44,933 nt of DNA. It comes from a virus (lineage: Duplodnaviria; Heunggongvirae; Uroviricota; Caudoviricetes). Shown here piece after piece: positions 19,492-44,933 of this stretch (position 1 is the first letter of the stretch; every line of letters starts with the position of its first letter). The notes beneath the pieces were generated by a model. It saw nothing but the letters and a program-made list of their open reading frames with translations. It did not search any database and was not told the DNA's origin. The DNA lies in the IMG/VR virus record IMGVR_UViG_2541047866_000012, one strand, 5' to 3'. The translations under genes and the position numbers were made by a program.

Positions 19492-19697
19492 TAGCGATAA
19501 TTTTACTCATCATCCTCCACATCTGGCTCTGTAGACAGGATGGTGATCACTTCTGGAGTGAATCCAGATTAAACATCTCATTGCTGATGCTTGATATTGA
19601 GCATCTTGCGCGCGGTAAGGGGCTGCGTTGAGATAAGAGCCAGTCATTACAAATACCAGGATTTAGCCTCGCATTCGCGGGGCTTTTTATTGCCATT

Positions 19698-19729
19698 ATC
19701 AAAGCCACTCCCTACAGAGTGGCTTTGAT
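19698..19729. terminator. Perfect 13-bp-arm palindrome (ATCAAAGCCACTC-CCTACA-GAGTGGCTTTGAT); candidate bidirectional terminator or protein site
   Basis: Directly visible; follows a weaker hairpin plus T-run at about 19665-19690 after Rz. Confidence 0.5.
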
Positions 19730-19772
19730 AATGGCTTATACCCTACACGGGATAGCTTAACTGATATCCCTT

Positions 19773-19988
19773 TTAACGGATAAAGGTATTCAAGCCTGAC
19801 ACATCATGCGCTGTATCGTCGCCGTATTCCCGTATTAACAGAGACCGTAGCCCGACGGGGAACTCCTTCTGCGCGAGTGTGCGGGAATAATCAAAAACGA
19901 TGCACACCGGGTTTTTACCGCGTTTATGGTTCGCGGGTTTGTCCCTCATGCTCGCCAGTCCTGTGCGGGGGTGGAAGAAACAGGACAC
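19773..19988 (-). CDS. Hypothetical small protein (uncertain)
   Basis: 71 aa; ends just upstream of the palindrome; no recognised motif. Confidence 0.35.
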   Translation of the reverse strand: MSCFFHPRTGLASMRDKPANHKRGKNPVCIVFDYSRTLAQKEFPVGLRSLLIREYGDDTAHDVSGLNTFIR

Positions 19989-20089
19989 TTACACAGATTC
20001 TTGTGGGCACGATGCTATGCCTTTCTGGATTATCCCGATGCCATTCATGCAAGGCGTTGTATCAGACGTTCGTCAGAGCTGTCAGGCTG

Positions 20090-20798: not shown

Positions 20799-22900
20799 TG
20801 CTGAATCAGGAAACCGCAAAGGCAGCACGAACCGATTCAGGTTATATCCTTCGCGCACCGAGACGAATGCGGGTTGCTGATGCCGTTGCTCAGTATATGC
20901 GGGTGCCCATGGGGGCAGGGAACTCAGTCCCGTGGGATCCGCTGGTGGCACCGTATGTTATTGAGCCGATGAACTGCCTGGCCTCGCGTGAATACGACGC
21001 AGTGATATTTGTTGGCCCGGCACGAACCGGCAAGACTATCGGCCTGATTGACGGCTGGGTGATTTACAACGTGATTTGCGATCCTGCGGATATGCTGATC
21101 ATTCAGATGACGGAGGAAAAAGCCCGCGAACACTCCAAAAAACGACTCGCCAGAACGTTTCGCGTCAGCCCGGAAGTGGTCAGTCGCCTGAGTCCGAACA
21201 AAAATGACAACAACGTTTATGACAGAACATTCCTTGCTGGCAACTACCTGAAAATCGGCTGGCCGTCAGTCAATATCATGTCCTCATCAGATTATAAATG
21301 CGTGGCGCTGACGGATTATGACCGTTTTCCGGAAGATATTGATGGCGAGGGGGATGCCTTCTCTCTTGCCTCAAAACGTACCACCACATTTATGTCCAGT
21401 GGTATGACGCTGGTGGAGAGTTCCCCCGGCAGGGATGTGAAGGATGTGAAATGGCGACGGACTTCACCGCATGAGGCTCCACCAACCACGGGGATACTGT
21501 CGCTCTATAACCGTGGCGATCGCCGTCGCTGGTACTGGCCCTGTCCACACTGTGGTGAGTATTTTCAGCCCTGCGGCGATGTGGTTGCTGGTTTCCGTGA
21601 TATTGCCGATCCCGTGCTGGCAAGTGAGGCGGCTTATATTCAGTGTCCTTCCTGTTCAGGACGGATTATGCCTGAACAAAAACGCGAGCTGAACGGACGT
21701 GGGGTCTGGTTGCGGGATGGTGAATCCATCAATGCGGATGGCAGTCGTTATGGTGATCCCCGACGCTCACGTATTGCGTCATTCTGGATGGAGGGTCCGG
21801 CAGCTGCTTACCAGACACTCTCGCAACTCGTTTACAAACTGCTTACTGCAGAACAGGAATACGAGACAACCGGAAGTGAAGAAACACTCAAGACGGTTAT
21901 CAATACCGACTGGGGATTACCTTATCTTCCCCGTGCCAGCATGGAGCAACGAAAAAGTGAACTGCTTGAGCAGCGGGCAGAGCCAGTTCCTTCCCGCAGT
22001 GTGCCGGATGGCGTTAATTTCCTTGTGGCGACAGTGGATGTGCAGGCGGGACGTCATCGCCGTTTTGTGGTTCAGGTAACGGGCTATGGCAGCCGTGGCG
22101 AACGCTGGATTATTGATCGTTACAACATCACGCAGTCATTGCGCGGTGACAGCGACGGGGAGAGCCAGCGAATTGATCCGGCCAGCTATCCGGAAGACTG
22201 GGATGTCCTGCTGACGGATGTTTTTCATAAAAGCTGGCCGCTGGCCTCCGATCCTTCTCAACAAATGCGACTGATGGCAATGGCGGTGGACTCCGGCGGT
22301 GAAGACGGGGTCACTGATAATGCCTATAAATTCTGGCGTCGTTGCCGTCGTGATGGCCTTGGTAAACGTATTTACCTGTTTAAGGGCGACAGCATCCGGC
22401 GCGCAAAACTGATCACCCGTACATTCCCTGATAACACCGGACGAACAGGCCGACGGGCGCAGGCCGCAGGTGATGTGCCGCTCTGGCTTCTTCAGACGGA
22501 TGCCCTGAAAGACCGGGTGAATAACGCGTTATGGCGTGACTCTCCAGGTCCCGGCTATGTGCATTTCCCTGACTGGCTGGGGAGCTGGTTTTACGACGAA
22601 CTGACGTATGAAGAGCGGAGTAGTGACGGGAAATGGAGTAAGCCGGGTCGCGGTGCCAACGAAGCTTTTGACCTGATGGTGTATGCCGAGGCTCTGGTCA
22701 TTCTGCATGGATACGAAAAGATCCGCTGGCCGGATGCACCGGGGTGGGCGAGCCGGGAAACCTGGCTGGAGTGTGTCCCGGACAGTACCGAACCGTCACC
22801 CTCACCGGAACCGGTATCCACGCCTGTTAAAAAACAAAAACGGAAGAAAACAGTAACTGACGATGTTAACCCCTGGCTGACTTCCGGAGGATGGTTATGA
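20798..22900 (+). CDS. Terminase large subunit (lambda GpA family)
   Basis: 700 aa; Walker A-like VGPARTGKT; WYWPCPHCGEYFQP parallels lambda gpA VACPHCGEEQYLKF. Confidence 0.95.
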   Translation: MLNQETAKAARTDSGYILRAPRRMRVADAVAQYMRVPMGAGNSVPWDPLVAPYVIEPMNCLASREYDAVIFVGPARTGKTIGLIDGWVIYNVICDPADMLIIQMTEEKAREHSKKRLARTFRVSPEVVSRLSPNKNDNNVYDRTFLAGNYLKIGWPSVNIMSSSDYKCVALTDYDRFPEDIDGEGDAFSLASKRTTTFMSSGMTLVESSPGRDVKDVKWRRTSPHEAPPTTGILSLYNRGDRRRWYWPCPHCGEYFQPCGDVVAGFRDIADPVLASEAAYIQCPSCSGRIMPEQKRELNGRGVWLRDGESINADGSRYGDPRRSRIASFWMEGPAAAYQTLSQLVYKLLTAEQEYETTGSEETLKTVINTDWGLPYLPRASMEQRKSELLEQRAEPVPSRSVPDGVNFLVATVDVQAGRHRRFVVQVTGYGSRGERWIIDRYNITQSLRGDSDGESQRIDPASYPEDWDVLLTDVFHKSWPLASDPSQQMRLMAMAVDSGGEDGVTDNAYKFWRRCRRDGLGKRIYLFKGDSIRRAKLITRTFPDNTGRTGRRAQAAGDVPLWLLQTDALKDRVNNALWRDSPGPGYVHFPDWLGSWFYDELTYEERSSDGKWSKPGRGANEAFDLMVYAEALVILHGYEKIRWPDAPGWASRETWLECVPDSTEPSPSPEPVSTPVKKQKRKKTVTDDVNPWLTSGGWL

Positions 22901-23109: not shown

Positions 23110-24617
23110 TGGCAATTCTTGATGATGTGATTGGCGTTTTTTCACCAGGATGGAAAGCGGCAAGGCTGCGTTCCCGTGCGGTGATCCAGGCTTATGAGGC
23201 CGTAAAAACGACGCGGACACACAAAGCCCGGCGGGAAAACCGAACTGCCGACCAGTTAAGCCAGTACGGGGCCGTGTCGTTACGTGAGCAGGCCCGTTAC
23301 CTTGATAACAACCACGATCTGGTTATTGGTGTATTTGACAAGCTGGAAGAACGGGTGGTGGGGAAAAACGGGATTATTGTCGAGCCACATCCGGTATTAC
23401 GCAATGGGGCCATTGCCCGTGATCTGGCAGCAGAGATACGCACCCGATGGAGTGAATGGTCTGTCAGTCCGGAAGTCACCGGGCAGTTTACCCGTCCGAT
23501 GCTGGAACGTCTGATGCTGCGTACCTGGCTGCGCGATGGTGAGGTGTTTGCCCAGATGGTTTCCGGGCGCATAAACAGCCTGACGCCTTCTGCCGGTGTT
23601 CATTTCTGGCTGGAGGCGCTCGAGCCGGACTTTATTCCCATGACCAGTGATGAGAGCAACAGGCTGAATCAGGGCGTGTTTGTTGATGACTGGGGGCGTC
23701 CCGAAAAATATCTGGTGTATAAAAGCCGTCCCGTATCCGGGCGGCAGATGGAAACCAAAGAAGTGGATGCAGAGCGAATGCTGCATCTTAAATTTGTTCG
23801 CCGTCTGCACCAGATGCGCGGGACGTCTTTGTTGTCCGGTGTGCTGATCCGCCTCAGTGCCCTGAAAGAGTATGAAGATTCTGAGCTGACTGCAGCAAGG
23901 ATCGCCGCTGCTCTGGGGATGTACATCCGGAAAGGCGACGGGCAGAGCTATGAACCGGATGGTAATGGCAGCAAGGAGAATGAACGCGAGCTTACCATTC
24001 AGCCAGGCATTATTTACGACGATCTGAAACCCGGCGAAGAAATCGGAATGGTGAAGTCGGATCGTCCCAATCCTAACCTTGAAACTTTTCGTAATGGTCA
24101 GTTGCGTGCCGTGGCGGCGGGCAGTCGTCTGAGTTTTTCCAGTACGGCACGCAACTATAACGGCACTTACAGCGCCCAGCGTCAGGAGCTGGTTGAATCC
24201 ACTGATGGCTACCTGATCCTGCAGGACTGGTTTATTGGTGCCGTCACCCGCCCGATGTATCGTGCCTGGCTGAAACAGGCTGTGGCATCCGGTGTTATCA
24301 GGCTACCCCGCGATCTTGACCGTTCTTCACTGTATACCGCGGTGTATTCCGGACCGGTGATGCCGTGGATTGACCCTGTTAAGGAGGCTGAGGCCTGGAA
24401 AATTCAGATTCGTGGCGGAGCGGCGACAGAATCAGACTGGGTACGTGCAGGTGGTCGTAATCCGGATGATGTCAAACGTCGGCGCAAGGCAGAAATTGAT
24501 GAAAACCGCAAGCTGGATCTGGTATTTGATACCGATCCGGCCAGTGATAAAGGAGGCAGCAGTGCCGCAACGAAACGACAGGAGCCGCAGCACACCGACG
24601 ACCAGTCCGAAGAATAA
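23109..24617 (+). CDS. Portal protein (lambda B family)
   Basis: 502 aa from ATG 23109 (MAILDDVIGVF...); size and position as for portal. Confidence 0.9.
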   Translation: MAILDDVIGVFSPGWKAARLRSRAVIQAYEAVKTTRTHKARRENRTADQLSQYGAVSLREQARYLDNNHDLVIGVFDKLEERVVGKNGIIVEPHPVLRNGAIARDLAAEIRTRWSEWSVSPEVTGQFTRPMLERLMLRTWLRDGEVFAQMVSGRINSLTPSAGVHFWLEALEPDFIPMTSDESNRLNQGVFVDDWGRPEKYLVYKSRPVSGRQMETKEVDAERMLHLKFVRRLHQMRGTSLLSGVLIRLSALKEYEDSELTAARIAAALGMYIRKGDGQSYEPDGNGSKENERELTIQPGIIYDDLKPGEEIGMVKSDRPNPNLETFRNGQLRAVAAGSRLSFSSTARNYNGTYSAQRQELVESTDGYLILQDWFIGAVTRPMYRAWLKQAVASGVIRLPRDLDRSSLYTAVYSGPVMPWIDPVKEAEAWKIQIRGGAATESDWVRAGGRNPDDVKRRRKAEIDENRKLDLVFDTDPASDKGGSSAATKRQEPQHTDDQSEE

Positions 24618-38658: not shown

Positions 38659-38684
38659 GGGCGCCAGCAATGGCGCCTTTTTTA
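38659..38684 (+). terminator. Intrinsic terminator after J
   Basis: Hairpin GGCGCC-AGCAAT-GGCGCC followed by TTTTTT. Confidence 0.65.
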
Positions 38685-38698
38685 TTTGTGGAGTGAGT

Positions 38699-41071
38699 AT
38701 GGCAGTACAGATTTCAGGTGTGCTGAAAGATGGTGCGGGAAAACCAATACAGAACTGCACTATTCAACTGAAGGCAAAGCGTAACAGCACCACGGTACTG
38801 GTGAACACGGTGGCCTCTGAAAATCCGGATGAAGCCGGGCGTTACAGCATGGATGTTGAGTATGGCCAGTACAGCGTCATCCTGCTGGTTGAAGGTTTTC
38901 CGCCTTCACATGCCGGGACCATTACCGTCTATGAAGGCTCCAGACCAGGTACGCTGAATGATTTTCTCGGTGCCATGACGGAAGATGATGTCATGCCGGA
39001 GGCATTGCGTCGTTTTGAGGAAATGGTGGAAGAAGCGGCACGCAACGCTGAAGCCGCCTCTCAGAGCGCAGCGGCGGCAAAGAAATCCGAAACTGCAGCG
39101 GCATCATCGAAGAACGCGGCGAAAACCTCAGAAACGAATGCAGCTAATAGTGCACAGGCGGCAGCGACCTCACAGACTGCATCAGCAAACTCCGCGACAG
39201 CAGCCAAAAAATCAGAAACCAACGCGAAAAATAGCGAGACAGCCGCAAAGACGAGCGAAACCAACGCAAAGTCCAGCCAGACGGCAGCGAAGACCAGCGA
39301 AACGAATGCTAAAGCCAGTGAAACTGCGGCAAAAAACAGCCAGGTTGCAGCAGCCCAAAGCGAGAGCGCGGCAGCCGGTTCTGCGACTTCAGCAGCTGGA
39401 TCAGCAACTGCTGCGGCTAACAGCCAGAAAGCTGCGAAGACGAGTGAAACTAACGCAAAGTCCAGCCAGACGGCAGCGAAGACCAGCGAAACGAATGCCA
39501 AAGCCAGTGAAACTGCGGCGAAAAGCAGTCAGGATGCAGCGGCCCAAAGCGAGAGTGCCGCAGCCAGTTCTGCAAGTGAGGCGGCGGCTTCTGCTACTGC
39601 ATCAGCCAACAGTCAAAAAGCTGCAAAAACCAGTGAAACCAACGCAAAGGCGAGCGAGACTACGGCGGCCAACTCGGCGAAAGCATCCGCTGCAAGCCAG
39701 ACCGCTGCAAAAGCAAGTGAAGACGCAGCCAGAGAGTATGCAAGCCAGGCAGCAGATCCGTATAAATATGTCTTACAGCCGCTACCTGATGTGTGGATAC
39801 CGTTTAACGATTCACTGGATATGATTACGGGCTTTTCGCCATCATATAAAAAGATTGTTATTGGTGACGACGAAATAACGATGCCTGGCGACAAGATTGT
39901 TAAGTTTAAACGTGCATCGAAAGCAACCTATATTAACAAATCTGGTGTGCTGACAGAGGCTGCCATTGATGAGCCTCGATTTGAACGTGATGGCCTGCTT
40001 ATTGAGGGGCAAAGAACGAACTACATGCTCAATTCGGAAAACCCTGCCAGTTGGGGGCGATCGTCAAATATGGATGTTCCCGAAACCGGGACGGATAGTT
40101 TTGGTTTTACCTATGGAAAGTTTGTCTGTAACGATTCTCTGATTGGGCAAACCTCAGCCATTAATATGGCATCAATTGCTGCAACAAAGTCAGTTGATGT
40201 CTCAGGCGATAATAAATACGTGACAACCTCATGTCGTTTTAAAACAGAACTGCAGGTAAGGTTGCGTATCCGATTTGATAAATATGACGGTAGCGCAACA
40301 ACTTTTCTTGGTGATGCGTATATTGATACACAAACGCTTGAAATTAATATGACAGGCGGCGCTGCCTCAAGGATTACAGCGAGAGTCAGAAAGGACGAAG
40401 CTACCGGATGGATTTTTGCAGAGGCAACAATTCAGGCAATTGATGGGGAGTTAAAAATAGGTTCTCAGATACAGTATTCTCCTAAGCAGGGCGGGGCAAC
40501 CGTATCTGGTGACTATATTTATCTGGCCACCCCACAAGTAGAAAATGGGCCTTGTGTATCATCTTTTATTATATCAGGAACGACGGCGGCGACCCGCGCA
40601 AGCGATATAGTTACAGTTCCCATTAAGAATAATCTTTATAATCTTCCTTTTACGGTTCTTTGTGAGGTACATAAGAACTGGTATAAAACGCCAAATGCAG
40701 CGCCGCGTGTTTTTGACACCGGCGGTCATCAAACCGGAGCGGCTATTATTCTTGGCTTCGGTTCTTCAGCAGATTACGACGGATTTCCTTATTGCGATAT
40801 TGGAGGAGCTAACAGACGGGTAAACGAAAACGCATTGCTTGAAAAAATGGTTATGGGGATGCGTGTAAAGTCAGATCAGTCTACGTGCTCAGTAAGTAAC
40901 GGGCGTATATCCAGCGAAACAAAAACCACATGGTCCTGTATTCAGAACACCGCAATTATCCGTATTGGAGGCCAGACTACAGCCGGGTTACGTCATTTAT
41001 TTGGTCATGTCAGGAATTTCAGAATATGGCACAAGGCATTGACTGATGCTCAGGTGGGGGAGTCAATCTAA
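38699..41071 (+). CDS. stf: Side tail fibre: lambda Stf-like N-terminus, KTSETNAK-type repeat shaft, replaced C-terminal LamG/ConA-like domain
   Basis: ATG 38699 with GGAG RBS; N-terminus MAVQISGVLKDGAGKPIQNCTIQLKAKRNSTTV matches lambda Stf; C-terminal about 430 aa unlike lambda Stf, ending ...LFGHVRNFRIWHKALTDAQV. Confidence 0.9.
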   Translation: MAVQISGVLKDGAGKPIQNCTIQLKAKRNSTTVLVNTVASENPDEAGRYSMDVEYGQYSVILLVEGFPPSHAGTITVYEGSRPGTLNDFLGAMTEDDVMPEALRRFEEMVEEAARNAEAASQSAAAAKKSETAAASSKNAAKTSETNAANSAQAAATSQTASANSATAAKKSETNAKNSETAAKTSETNAKSSQTAAKTSETNAKASETAAKNSQVAAAQSESAAAGSATSAAGSATAAANSQKAAKTSETNAKSSQTAAKTSETNAKASETAAKSSQDAAAQSESAAASSASEAAASATASANSQKAAKTSETNAKASETTAANSAKASAASQTAAKASEDAAREYASQAADPYKYVLQPLPDVWIPFNDSLDMITGFSPSYKKIVIGDDEITMPGDKIVKFKRASKATYINKSGVLTEAAIDEPRFERDGLLIEGQRTNYMLNSENPASWGRSSNMDVPETGTDSFGFTYGKFVCNDSLIGQTSAINMASIAATKSVDVSGDNKYVTTSCRFKTELQVRLRIRFDKYDGSATTFLGDAYIDTQTLEINMTGGAASRITARVRKDEATGWIFAEATIQAIDGELKIGSQIQYSPKQGGATVSGDYIYLATPQVENGPCVSSFIISGTTAATRASDIVTVPIKNNLYNLPFTVLCEVHKNWYKTPNAAPRVFDTGGHQTGAAIILGFGSSADYDGFPYCDIGGANRRVNENALLEKMVMGMRVKSDQSTCSVSNGRISSETKTTWSCIQNTAIIRIGGQTTAGLRHLFGHVRNFRIWHKALTDAQVGESI
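39251..39628 (+). repeat. In-frame 189-bp tandem duplication (about 90 percent identical) within stf shaft
   Basis: Copy 1 from 39251 and copy 2 from 39440 (ACGAG(C/T)GAAAC(C/T)AACGCAAAGTCCAGCCAGACGGCAGCGAAGACCAGCGAAACGAATGC...); further diverged KxSETNAK units upstream. Confidence 0.8.
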
Positions 41072-41352
41072 TGAAAGATTTAACACTCAAATTTGCCGAC
41101 AGGGCCGACTTTTCGGCCTTTATGGAGAGTATTGGCTATTATGATGACGAGTCGATGCAGGATGATATTCTTATTGACGTGATAGGTAACGTGTACAAAG
41201 AAAACGGAGAACTGAATGAAGATGGCGAACCGGTATGTGTTAAGGACGACGGATATTTTGTAAACGTGCGCATCATTAATGATGTGAAAACACCATCAAT
41301 ATTCGATGAATACGTGGTTGCTGTTGAGCATCAACTTCGTGGCTGGATGTGA
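41071..41352 (+). CDS. Hypothetical acidic small protein, translationally coupled to stf
   Basis: 93 aa; TAATG overlap with stf stop; no recognised motif. Confidence 0.6.
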   Translation: MKDLTLKFADRADFSAFMESIGYYDDESMQDDILIDVIGNVYKENGELNEDGEPVCVKDDGYFVNVRIINDVKTPSIFDEYVVAVEHQLRGWM

Positions 41353-41361
41353 GGAAGAAAA

Positions 41362-42402
41362 ATGGCTACATCGACAGTAATTCCTGATGACATCAAAACG
41401 CTAAAATCCGACGTTAGCAAATTAAAAAACGATCAAGGAAGCTACGCAACAAAATCATATGTAGACAGCAAAGATGAAACCGTTGGTGACTGGTCTGCTT
41501 CATGGTATCAGCAGGTATTGCCAACTAGCGGAGCTATATTTGGGAGAAAACTCCGCTCAACTCACAGGACGGCAGGTGTTGAGGATGCGTATTGCGAACT
41601 ATACCTCAAAAAATGGATAGACAGTCCAGGTAACGCAATGGCGCGCCTTAACCTGAACGATAACGGGACAAACATTTGCTGGGACTTTACCAACCTTTAT
41701 GGCGGTACGATGATTTTTCCCGGTGACAGCGGATACCTCAAAATGGGTAACTGCCTTATGTCATACAGCAAGCGTGGAAGTAACGCGCTTATTAAATTTG
41801 ATTACACCGACACATTACAGATCAAATATGCCAATCATGGGTCAACCATGACATTAAACACACAGGGAACCGCTCATTCTGGCGCTACTACTAGTTTGTG
41901 GGGTAACTCTACCCGTCCGGTTGTATATGAAGTTGGTGCTGATGGTGGCGCGTATATGTTCTATGCGCAGAAAAATACCGATAACACCTATATGTTAAGC
42001 GTTAATGGTGCATGTCATGCCACCGCATTTAACCAGCATTCCGACCGGGATCTGAAAGACAACATTCAGGTGATCGATAATGCAACCGACCGCATCCGTA
42101 AAATGAACGGCTATACATACACGCTTAAAGAAAACGGTATGCCCTATGCTGGTGTCATTGCACAGGAAGCACTGGAAGCAATCCCAGAAGTTGTAGGTTC
42201 CGCAATGAAATATCAGGACGGTGCAGGCGGATCGGAAGGTGAAGAAGGTGAACGTTATTACACAGTAGATTATTCTGGTGTTACTGGCTTGCTTGTTCAG
42301 GTAGCCAGAGAGTCAGACGACAGAATAACAGCACTGGAAGAAGAAAACGCAGAATTAAGACAAAGATTATCTGCAATTGAGGCGGCGCTTGCGTCTAAAT
42401 AA
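41362..42402 (+). CDS. Tail fibre / tailspike-like protein with C-terminal intramolecular chaperone (peptidase S74) domain
   Basis: 346 aa; C-terminal HSDRDLKDNIQVIDNATDRIRKMNGYTYTLKENG...AGVIAQEALEAIPEVV plus terminal coiled coil fits the self-cleaving chaperone signature. Confidence 0.8.
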   Translation: MATSTVIPDDIKTLKSDVSKLKNDQGSYATKSYVDSKDETVGDWSASWYQQVLPTSGAIFGRKLRSTHRTAGVEDAYCELYLKKWIDSPGNAMARLNLNDNGTNICWDFTNLYGGTMIFPGDSGYLKMGNCLMSYSKRGSNALIKFDYTDTLQIKYANHGSTMTLNTQGTAHSGATTSLWGNSTRPVVYEVGADGGAYMFYAQKNTDNTYMLSVNGACHATAFNQHSDRDLKDNIQVIDNATDRIRKMNGYTYTLKENGMPYAGVIAQEALEAIPEVVGSAMKYQDGAGGSEGEEGERYYTVDYSGVTGLLVQVARESDDRITALEEENAELRQRLSAIEAALASK

Positions 42403-42408
42403 TATTAA

Positions 42409-42428
42409 GGGGCCGAGCGCCCCGTTTT
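42409..42428 (+). terminator. Intrinsic terminator after S74 fibre gene
   Basis: Hairpin GGGGC-CGAGC-GCCCC followed by GTTTTATT. Confidence 0.65.
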
Positions 42429-42444
42429 ATTGGGTAGGATGAAA

Positions 42445-42738
42445 ATGGATATAACACCTTTCCTTCATGCGCTTTGTGCTGCGGCTGCGCAGCTATTGAT
42501 TGGTCTTTTTACCGGGAACTGGGCTTACGGGGCGATAGCCGGTTGTACGTTCTTCATTGCGCGCGAACATACCCAGGCAGAATATCGCTGGATTGAAATG
42601 TTCGGGCATGGCAAGCGTATGAATATGCCGTGGTGGGGCGGTTTTGATCCTCGTGCATGGGATGTGGCAAGCCTGATGGATTTTTCTGTGCCGGTGGTGG
42701 CGTGTCTGCTGGTCTGGCTGTTGGTTAATCGTGGGTGA
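42445..42738 (+). CDS. Hypothetical small membrane protein
   Basis: About 97 aa from ATG 42445 (AGGA RBS); hydrophobic N- and C-terminal segments. Confidence 0.5.
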   Translation: MDITPFLHALCAAAAQLLIGLFTGNWAYGAIAGCTFFIAREHTQAEYRWIEMFGHGKRMNMPWWGGFDPRAWDVASLMDFSVPVVACLLVWLLVNRG

Positions 42739-42748
42739 AAAAAGGTGA

Positions 42749-42876
42749 GCTGTATATGCAACGGAGGAAGAAACCTCGTTGCTGGAAGCCTGGAAGAAGT
42801 ATCGGGTGTTGCTGAATCGCGTTGATACATCAGTAGCACCGGATACTGAGTGGCCGGAAGAACCAGACACAATGTA
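42749..42876 (+). pseudogene. tfa: C-terminal remnant of tail fibre assembly gene (about 42 codons)
   Basis: Translates ...[39 protein letters not shown]-stop, the conserved Tfa C-terminus; in-frame TGA at 42746 and no start codon. Confidence 0.65.
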
Positions 42877-43041
42877 AGTGAAAAAGAAAAAACGCAGACA
42901 CGACGTATGCAGGACGTGCTGCGGTTGGCTGGTGAACTTTCGATAGTGCGAGTATTGAATGATTTCCAGCCGTTACTGATTTTACGCATTTCACGCGCAA
43001 GAGAAATTGAACTTTATCCCTCTGTCACCCCATGACGGGGA

Positions 43042-43800
43042 TTAACATTCTGGATTTTTTATTTCTAAATCAGATAAAGCATTAATTCTTATTTTTTCTA
43101 AGGCTTTATCCATGGCCCCCTTGATTCTGTATCCATAATCATCCGGTTCTTCATATTCCTGTGGGGACGGATTTGTACCAATATTCTCAATCAATTCATT
43201 TAAAATAACTGTTACTTCTTTATTAAGAAGAACTGCTTTAGTTAACATCATCTCTGTTAATGCTGTGAAGGCTAGGCTAAGTTTCTGTTGTAGCTCTTTA
43301 TTTTTTAATTTTAGATCTTCATCGTTTAGTGCTTTATCACGGTCTTCGTGAGCCTGTTGTACTTCATCCCAAAACTGCTTTTCTTGTTCTTGATTAAAAT
43401 ATCCTTGATAACTATTGGCTACATATGTTGGCATCATGTGAATCTCAATAATTTCAAATTCATTATCAGCCCATTTTTTTATACTAAGTAACTGTGTGTA
43501 AATGTACTCATACATATCGTACTTTTTTTGCCAGATTTGTTGAGAAATCCACAACTCAGAAGTAATCTTTTTTTCTATATCTTTGATAGTTGTTGTATTT
43601 AATGCTAACTGCTTTCTGAGTATTTCATAGTTAGCGTTGGTAGCAGAAATTTTTGCTTTTTCAGTTATAAAAGAAACAATAAAGTTCACTATGAGAGCTA
43701 CAATAATAATAGCGAAGCTCAACCCCAAAATCTCTGTGGTTGAGAAATTGGATGACTGTAATGCTTTGATAAGTTCAAAAAACTGTTTTTCTGTGAGCAT
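43042..43800 (-). CDS. AT-rich single-TM coiled-coil membrane protein, unknown function (cargo gene B)
   Basis: 252 aa; TAAGG RBS; TM helix about residues 24-45; Lys/Glu/Gln-rich coiled-coil-like remainder. Confidence 0.8.
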   Translation of the reverse strand: MLTEKQFFELIKALQSSNFSTTEILGLSFAIIIVALIVNFIVSFITEKAKISATNANYEILRKQLALNTTTIKDIEKKITSELWISQQIWQKKYDMYEYIYTQLLSIKKWADNEFEIIEIHMMPTYVANSYQGYFNQEQEKQFWDEVQQAHEDRDKALNDEDLKLKNKELQQKLSLAFTALTEMMLTKAVLLNKEVTVILNELIENIGTNPSPQEYEEPDDYGYRIKGAMDKALEKIRINALSDLEIKNPEC

Positions 43801-43872
43801 GGTGCCTTACCAAAAATTAAGACTGTTATCTATATAAAAATGTTACCCAAGAGGGATTGTAATGAAATAACA

Positions 43873-43892
43873 AACCGGCACATTGGCCGGTT
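43873..43892 (-). terminator. Hairpin between cargo genes A and B (possible attenuator)
   Basis: AACCGGC-ACATTG-GCCGGTT, followed on the minus strand by TTGTTATTTCATT. Confidence 0.45.
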
Positions 43893-43898
43893 TGAAGT

Positions 43899-44933
43899 TC
43901 AAGGAGGTGAGATTGTAGAGGCGTTACCTTGTTCTATCACACCAGACCTAATCTTGTAACTACCAAGGATGTTGACCGTTTTATTATTTTTCATCGCGTC
44001 AAAAATTAAGCCTATTTCATCAGGGTCATTGATAAAACTGGTATCAACATAGATCGGGAATGAATCATCACCTGTTGGCTCATGGCAGCTTAACGTTAGC
44101 TTATCGGCTGAGCGTTTTATACTATCAATGACAACTTCCAATGTTTGCTGCTCTGACTTAGCCTTTTCAATTGGGTTCTTGATGATTTCTTGAACCTGAC
44201 CTTGCGAAAGTTCAATATTGCTGGCCCCGCGGATCGTCACTTTGTCTGCATCAGATGCACCTTTAAGAACTCCAGTGTATGCCTTAGCGGTGTGCTCTTG
44301 GATACCTTCGGCGCGCTCTATCGTATCAATACCTTCATGTGCTTTTATTGCAGACAGCATACCATCGCGTAGAATTGTCATCCGCTCGGATTCTGCTCGC
44401 TGTTTTGCTTCTTCCTGTTGTAACTCAATAGTTTTGGTTTCGACTTGTGTCTGATGATCTAAGTAGGACGTACCGACCCATGCGCCGCCTAAAACTAAGA
44501 CAGCAAACAGGAAACACATTGTTTTCTGTCTTGGGCTCATACCTTGTGTTACCTTCTCAAATGCGTTACCAAAGGAATCAATAAGTTCTTTAACTGAGGT
44601 GATAATTTCTGTACAGCCAGGTTTGATAGTAAAAACCAACTCTGCAGCTTCTCTATCCTCAGCAGTGAGCTTCTGTAAGTTAGAGGTTTTGTACTTGATT
44701 AGAGTAAAAACCTTGTACATCTCAGTTTGAAATTCACAAATACCCTGTGCCAAACCTGCAGGCAGAGTACCATTATACTTATCTTCATCACCAAAAAATT
44801 TGAAATCAATACTTTCTAAGAAGTTTAACTTCAAATTTTCAATGTGGATTTCTTCGCCTGAAATAACTCGGTCGAAAATATTTCCTATATCATCAATATC
44901 ATTGATTTCATAGGTCTGAATTGCATCTTCCAT
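43899..44933 (-). CDS. AT-rich single-TM membrane protein, unknown function (cargo gene A)
   Basis: 344 aa; start ATG is the last three bases of the window; internal TM helix about residues 138-158 (TMCFLFAVLVLGGAWVGTSYL). Confidence 0.8.
   Translation of the reverse strand: MEDAIQTYEINDIDDIGNIFDRVISGEEIHIENLKLNFLESIDFKFFGDEDKYNGTLPAGLAQGICEFQTEMYKVFTLIKYKTSNLQKLTAEDREAAELVFTIKPGCTEIITSVKELIDSFGNAFEKVTQGMSPRQKTMCFLFAVLVLGGAWVGTSYLDHQTQVETKTIELQQEEAKQRAESERMTILRDGMLSAIKAHEGIDTIERAEGIQEHTAKAYTGVLKGASDADKVTIRGASNIELSQGQVQEIIKNPIEKAKSEQQTLEVVIDSIKRSADKLTLSCHEPTGDDSFPIYVDTSFINDPDEIGLIFDAMKNNKTVNILGSYKIRSGVIEQGNASTISPP

Follow-up and report, generated by a model that had tools for sequence, protein, structure and literature searches.

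A truncated tail fibre assembly gene (tfa) at a widely shared recombination junction in lambdoid prophages of Escherichia coli

The window, i.e. the whole stretch of 44,933 nucleotides that was analysed (IMG/VR record IMGVR_UViG_2541047866_000012), is a lambdoid prophage. In E. coli LS4 (NZ_CP024717), where the region is 100% identical to the window, the genes are arranged in the order J, stf, a 93-aa ORF, a second fibre gene, a gene for a small hypothetical protein, a stump of the tail fibre assembly gene tfa, two leftward hypothetical genes, dinI and the host gene prfC. The features of the window at this locus are as follows:

38693-41071, plus strand, side tail fibre gene stf, 792 aa (Pfam phage_tail_N at residues 3-133)
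41071-41352, plus strand, 93-aa ORF directly after stf (phrog_1361; same position in phage 21 and HannyBb)
41362-42402, plus strand, gene for a second tail fibre protein, 346 aa (phrog_4563, tail fiber protein)
42430-42738, plus strand, membrane-protein gene, 102 aa (from the ORF list; phrog_1443, E 4e-58)
42739-42756, no strand, 18-bp spacer AAAAAGGTGAGCTGTATA between the stop of the membrane-protein gene and the first tfa base (from the alignment)
42746-42748, plus strand, in-frame TGA that closes the stump frame on the 5' side (from the translation)
42757-42877, plus strand, tfa 3' stump, a pseudogene fragment (tblastn, blastn, Caudo_TAP, alignment, PGAP annotation in LS4)
42881-42923, minus strand, hairpin with U-run that abuts the stump (from the minus-strand fold)
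42893-43012, no strand, conserved non-coding block (blastn, 83% to lambda 24163-24283, between ea47 and ea31)
43042-44933, minus strand, two leftward cargo genes, 252 aa (43042-43800) and 344 aa (43899-44933) (from the ORF list)

When lambda Tfa (194 aa) was compared with the window by tblastn, the only real match was located at 42758-42865 and corresponded to residues 156-191, with 31 of the 36 residues identical (E 3e-15); the three remaining matches all had E values above 1. The Pfam family Caudo_TAP (PF02413) matched the stump with 60.5 bits (cut-off 22.1; E 2.4e-16), only positions 95-130 of the 131 positions of the profile being covered and not the full-length domain. At the DNA level, 42757-42855 showed 92% identity to lambda 22437-22535 (blastn). 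The codons for Tfa residues 156-194 extend from 42758 to 42874 and are followed by a stop codon at 42875-42877, which is at the natural tfa stop position, since 39 codons counted from A156 give the 194 aa of the lambda protein. Thus, the earlier note was right in assigning this frame to the conserved C-terminus of Tfa, and the span that it gave, 42749-42876, was correct within a few bases. Like pseudogenes such as tfaX of K-12, the stump is a tfa 3' remnant: it retains C-terminal tfa homology, lacks the N-terminal part and is located distally in a lambdoid tail fibre block. The stump is also already known: in LS4 it is annotated by PGAP as pseudogene CUB99_RS28840, which maps to 42758-42877 and is described as 'tail fiber assembly protein; incomplete; missing N-terminus'. 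It is therefore an ordinary feature, flagged in public annotation as an N-terminally truncated pseudogene.

The coding capacity of the stump is limited on its 5' side. A TGA at 42746-42748, directly 5' of 42749, lies in the stump frame and closes it, as had been stated before. The statement that the frame has no start held in so far as no in-frame ATG is present before the last codon; an in-frame TTG at 42779 and a GTG at 42806 do exist, neither of which is supported as a real start. The TTG, which is the one candidate start on the ORF list, gives a mechanical ORF of 32 aa. A start codon from which a functional Tfa protein could be made is not found, the frame offering the upstream TGA and an internal TTG. 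Moreover, tblastn with lambda Tfa identified no second Tfa segment in any frame of the whole window. Because residues 1-155 are missing, no start codon is present and an in-frame stop lies upstream, the stump is unable to make the Tfa chaperone. It is concluded from these homologies that the stump is the last 39 codons of a lambda-type tfa gene and, as predicted from its sequence, a non-functional relic. The possibility that read-through or frameshifting fuses the membrane protein to the stump was considered as well and rejected: relative to that gene, the stump is in the +1 frame, which is closed by the TGA at 42746, the -1 frame misses the stump, and the A AAA AAG run at 42738-42745 comes after the stop codon.

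The junction was located by alignment of the window with lambda, phage 21 and HannyBb. The genomes that carry the cassette on the left (the window, phage 21 and HannyBb) are identical through ...GGTGAGCTGTATA, and lambda enters the alignment at TGCAACG, i.e. at T42757. Complete E. coli genomes were searched with a query of 211 nt, one half of which is membrane gene and the other half stump. Among the E. coli matches listed, intact tfa genes start at query positions 108-112, which correspond to 42757-42761, or later, and never further left. No tfa sequence aligns with the spacer left of 42757, either in the listed rows for E. coli and phages or in 80 intact tfa loci, and local alignment of the spacer against tfa gave nothing better than 8 nt. 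The sole likeness is the hexamer GTGAGC, found at tfa codons 143-144 in the 80 intact alleles and expected by chance. The 3' end of the membrane gene is native, because a diverged homologue in PhiR47_1 ends alike without a stump. Since tfa homology begins at T42757 and the spacer matches nothing in tfa, the breakpoint is placed at about 42751-42757. The left breakpoint claimed in the earlier note thus exists, but its position is slightly to the right of the proposed 42740-42750. The further claim, that a tfa remnant lies at a recombination junction and that its upstream partner has been displaced, agrees with the absence of the rest of tfa from every frame of the window.

A microhomology of 12/13 was found between the 3' end of the membrane gene in PhiR47_1 (contig L005, positions 2560-2575, CTGCTGATCTGGA) and lambda tfa (22419-22431, CTGCAGATCTGGA). 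It was rejected as the cause of the junction, as it lies just upstream of the breakpoint and off the actual junction; it is probably due to chance, the random odds of such a match being about 5% by our own estimate.

The junction is widespread. Among 5426 complete E. coli genomes, at least 1029, i.e. about a fifth, have it at a query coverage of at least 80%, and some of the E. coli matches listed end at 42814 (query 3-165), which is the span of the phage 21-type stump. In addition, 35 phage records extend across the junction; phage 21, HannyBb, Tritos, 2G7b and many Lambda_ev isolates are among them. The exact junction 20-mer is present in 86 IMG/VR contigs. A 23-mer made up of the spacer and the adjoining end of the membrane gene was located in 79 IMG/VR contigs, and in all evaluable ones (78/78) the spacer is followed by the stump and by nothing else. 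Likewise, no row among the E. coli matches listed has the membrane gene and spacer without the stump, and no intermediate form, for example with a complete tfa behind the cassette, was seen. A shared junction without intermediate forms points to one founding event. As judged from the identical junction in E. coli, isolated phages and IMG/VR contigs, the event is neither recent nor specific to the source genome.

On the left side of the junction lies the cassette that appears to have replaced the lambda-type genes. At the DNA level, stf is lambda-like only in its 5' end (38682-39048 versus lambda 19633-19999, 84%, blastn), and the left edge of the replaced block is probably this conserved 5' end, at about 39048. 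The middle of Stf, at about 39050-39800, is alanine-rich and repetitive (repeats such as AAKTSETNAKSSQT) and produces long ORFs, such as 38985-39824 (plus) and 39061-39501 (minus), that are spurious and occur on both strands. The 93-aa ORF of family phrog_1361 occupies the place directly after stf that is usually taken by tfa, and it could encode an alternative fibre chaperone. The second fibre protein carries a C-terminal Peptidase_S74 intramolecular chaperone domain (PF13884, E 6e-14, residues 227-278).

The last gene of the replacement cassette is the membrane-protein gene, the start of which is placed at 42445 by PGAP in LS4 and whose homologue in phage 21 is annotated as 'putative membrane protein'. 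At 42409-42423, between this gene and the S74 fibre gene, a G+C-rich, terminator-like hairpin (GGGGCCGAGCGCCCC followed by GTTTTATT) is located, which suggests that the membrane gene may be expressed apart from the late operon. Searches of the Pfam, NCBIfam and PADLOC families gave nothing useful for the membrane protein, the 93-aa ORF or the two cargo proteins.

On the right side, the stump is directly followed by a hairpin in which CGCAG at 42893-42897 pairs with CTGCG at 42919-42923, the U-run of the minus strand being at 42881-42892. The hairpin is kept both after intact tfa genes and after stumps and is found directly 3' of tfa or the stump in many lambdoid phages. Across 15 variants, 93.9% of the positions are paired, two inner pairs have changed on both sides and the outer stem CCGCAG/CTGCGG is invariant. 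Lambda (NC_001416) has two copies, at 22572-22615 and 24161-24204, which are 77% alike and flank ea47. The hairpin is probably an intrinsic terminator for leftward transcription, as predicted from the conserved fold. It forms the left end of the conserved non-coding block. PhiR47_1 and O157 prophages have this block too, adjacent to dinI; in the window, block and dinI are separated by the two cargo genes.

The cargo genes, which are visibly A+T-rich, make up the variable part on the right side of the junction. The 252-aa protein apparently has one membrane-spanning segment that is followed by helical sequence, and for the 344-aa protein a match to phrog_6191 was obtained, the only family match of the pair; no Pfam, PADLOC or NCBIfam family was found for either protein. 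Among the 86 IMG/VR contigs that carry the junction, the match to the window extends over the 700 nt to the right of it in only 3; this distance covers the first cargo gene, and the representative of the 3 (L021) carries the second cargo gene too. As cargo at this position the pair of the window is rare, and it may represent a moron or a defence pair.

When the 300 nt past the stump were compared among the 71 contigs with enough sequence, 13 clusters of right flanks were obtained. One of these (L008) resembles HannyBb, in which a DNA invertase is annotated, and another (L017) resembles phage 21, in which sitD is annotated. In a third cluster (L034) the ORFs appear AppY- and OmpT-like, as in DLP12 of K-12, and in a fourth (L012) a leftward ORF of 218 aa is followed by a second, TfaX-like remnant. 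Other clusters, read by eye only, appear to contain transposase, transporter and other genes. The position at which relatives diverge from the window also varies: in phage 21 it lies after 42814, in HannyBb and most others at about 42850-42855, where the tfa alleles differ.

Tail fibre segments that are inverted by Gin/Cin/Pin-type enzymes have a crossover site with the core AAACC-NN-GGTTT. An invertible segment of this type was rejected for the window, since this core could not be found anywhere in it, even with up to one mismatch. No invertase was annotated or matched to the right of the stump in the window, although HannyBb-type relatives have one.

The stumps carry signs of decay. In the 15-residue core motif, the 72 long stumps contained the changes L164R, W167R, W167L, W167stop and V172M, with 28 variant occurrences. 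The 80 intact lambda-type tfa genes have no stop over the first 31 codons, and their sole change in the core is A166V (n = 2). The stumps thus gave no sign of purifying selection on the core motif (28 occurrences in 72 stumps compared with 2 in 80 intact genes); this contrast is suggestive and not a formal selection test, as the sequences are related and many of the contigs are close relatives. The pattern suggests that the stump is decaying and that constraint at the protein level has been lost.

Alleles are mixed within the stump. In the four-gamete test, 92 of 325 informative site pairs fail over 94 nt, although such failures can also come from recurrent mutation. A single left junction occurs together with various C-terminal tails (TNPVRE, ALP, LIQP and EEPDTM), which is the pattern expected of crossovers within the stump, and intact tfa alleles carry the tails TNPVRE and ALP as well as the near-identical EEPDTV. 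The mixed allele combinations therefore indicate that recombination has probably occurred inside the stump. In crosses of lambda with Rac, a third of the recombinants had the right crossover in a tfa region of 95% homology (PMC3945230).

Taken as a whole, these results are very probably best explained by a dead tfa relic that was formed in one illegitimate joining and has since spread and decayed. In the ancestor of a large group of lambdoid phages, a single illegitimate joining would have connected the 3' flank of the membrane gene to tfa codon 156, whereby tfa codons 1-155 would have been removed. The same block would have exchanged the distal part of a lambda-type stf for a new distal part of stf, the 93-aa ORF and, in the window, the second fibre with its own chaperone. 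The edges of this block would be located in the conserved 5' end of stf (about 39048) on the left and at 42757 on the right, and we infer that the block came from elsewhere and that tfa was not deleted in place.

With the new set of fibres, a separate Tfa chaperone would no longer have been needed. This is proposed because the second fibre has its own chaperone domain and because phages with the stump, such as phage 21, HannyBb and Tritos, have been deposited as complete phage genomes. The new fibres are thus likely to have made Tfa dispensable; the chaperone domain is not the whole reason, because phage 21 has the stump without an S74 fibre gene. Subsequently, the junction would have spread by descent and by homologous recombination, the latter being proposed because the 3' end of tfa is among the most conserved DNA stretches in lambdoid prophages. 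The junction now forms the border between the tail fibre module and a hypervariable cargo region, and the decaying stump may still serve as a passive homology patch for crossovers.

The same end product could have been formed by deletion in place, if an ancestor had carried the fibre cassette together with a complete tfa, the first 465 nt of which were then lost without any import. The 18-bp spacer at the junction would fit such a deletion, as would the microhomology between PhiR47_1 and lambda tfa near the breakpoint. However, this microhomology is off the actual junction and has a random chance of about 5%, and the spacer is followed by the stump in every evaluable IMG/VR contig, with no exception among the E. 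coli rows listed. Deletion in place therefore seems somewhat unlikely. It is decidedly less probable, though it deserves mention, that the stump and the hairpin (about 42757-42923) are kept as a unit that acts as a conserved linker, a homology patch with which lambdoid phages swap fibre cassettes on the left and cargo on the right. If this were true, the persistence of the stump would reflect selection for exchangeability and not mere slow decay, and the cargo that is swapped would include sitABCD, type III effectors, appY/ompT and possible defence genes.

Other readings concern the nature of the stump itself. It might be kept as a functional micro-protein, for example of 32 aa starting at TTG 42779, that contains the fibre-binding C-terminal helix of Tfa. 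The mechanical ORF does exist, a GGAGG is present 11 nt upstream of the TTG, and the short PHROG families phrog_2341 (88 aa) and phrog_3792 (78 aa) end with this motif. Nevertheless, many carriers have replacements or a stop at the conserved Trp and other core positions, stumps of the phage 21 type are without sequence after codon 175, there is no ATG, and the Shine-Dalgarno-like sequence is poorly spaced, which makes a micro-protein very improbable. An assignment of the region to the Rfam family IS009 (RF02111), as a small RNA gene, is even harder to maintain. cmscan did report a match at 42736-42834 (64.2 bits, E 4e-14), but this is below the gathering score of 117 and involves only the unstructured model positions 1-7 and 130-199, the 122 structured positions (about 8-129) being replaced by 22 nt; furthermore, the full-score match in K-12 (227.8 bits) falls within coding sequence of tfaD, on the same strand. 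Finally, an intact tfa that was broken by a frameshift in sequencing or assembly would account for the C-terminal homology and for nothing more. A frameshifted full-length Tfa was sought and not found in any frame of the window, the upstream sequence is a conserved and unrelated gene, and the same junction is present in more than 1000 complete genomes and in independently sequenced phages. The probability of such an error is practically negligible, and the earlier note was correct in regarding the sequence as a remnant.

The stump is of little weight by itself; it is a real but ordinary pseudogene fragment and the scar of an old recombination. It can be used as a landmark that shows where the tail fibre module ends and the variable cargo begins in E. 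coli prophages of a very common family. In addition, the 3' end of tfa as a recurrent crossover zone aids the reading of mosaic prophage maps and the tracing of the movement of cargo genes.

Comparison with known systems starts with Tfa of lambda (orf-194), to the last 36-39 codons of which the stump is 86% identical at the protein and 92% at the DNA level. Both share the stop position and the location at the end of the tail fibre block; unlike the stump, lambda Tfa has residues 1-155. The closest relatives are phage 21 (OL657228), HannyBb, Tritos, 2G7b and LS4, in which the left junction and the cassette are identical to those in the window. They differ on the right, where phage 21 continues with sitABCD after 42814 and HannyBb, which diverges near the stop, with a DNA invertase. 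The stump has been left unannotated in the phage records, whereas it is annotated in LS4. A literature search on the side tail fibre and sitABCD of phage 21 found no paper. The conserved tfa region was identified as an experimental crossover site by De Paepe et al. 2014 (PMC3945230), which fits the mixed alleles of the stump; their crosses involved the intact Rac and Qin genes, whereas here a remnant is concerned and recombination is deduced from population patterns.

In Rfam, IS009 (RF02111) is listed as a small RNA. Its full-score match in K-12 (NC_000913, 581856-582054) lies inside tfaD on the coding strand, and a second K-12 match, just below the threshold, lies over tfaX. Judging from these positions, IS009 models tfa coding DNA, and its matches in prophages are tfa coding DNA; such matches should not be taken as small RNA genes without further evidence.

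Other C-terminal tfa remnants are known. In DLP12 of K-12, tfaX likewise borders cargo genes; it ends in ...LEIATEEERSLLEA*, the codon of the conserved Trp having become a stop, and the DNA reads on for 13 more residues. The prophage at the ssrA site of O157:H7 has a stump of 153 nt that starts from aa 144 after espM2 and has an internal stop at the conserved Trp, followed by the same downstream hairpin and dinI. Strain P30_L1_05.20 has a tfa stump from aa 147, and the second, TfaX-like remnant of IMG/VR contig L012 starts from about aa 132. The left breakpoints of these remnants, at aa 132 (approximately), 144 and 147, are thus different from that in the window at aa 156, and the left neighbours of other tfa remnants (ybcY, espM2 and another fibre gene) differ from those in the window as well. 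As far as can be judged from these genomes, retention of the tfa 3' end at the border between fibre and cargo genes is a recurrent and known pattern.
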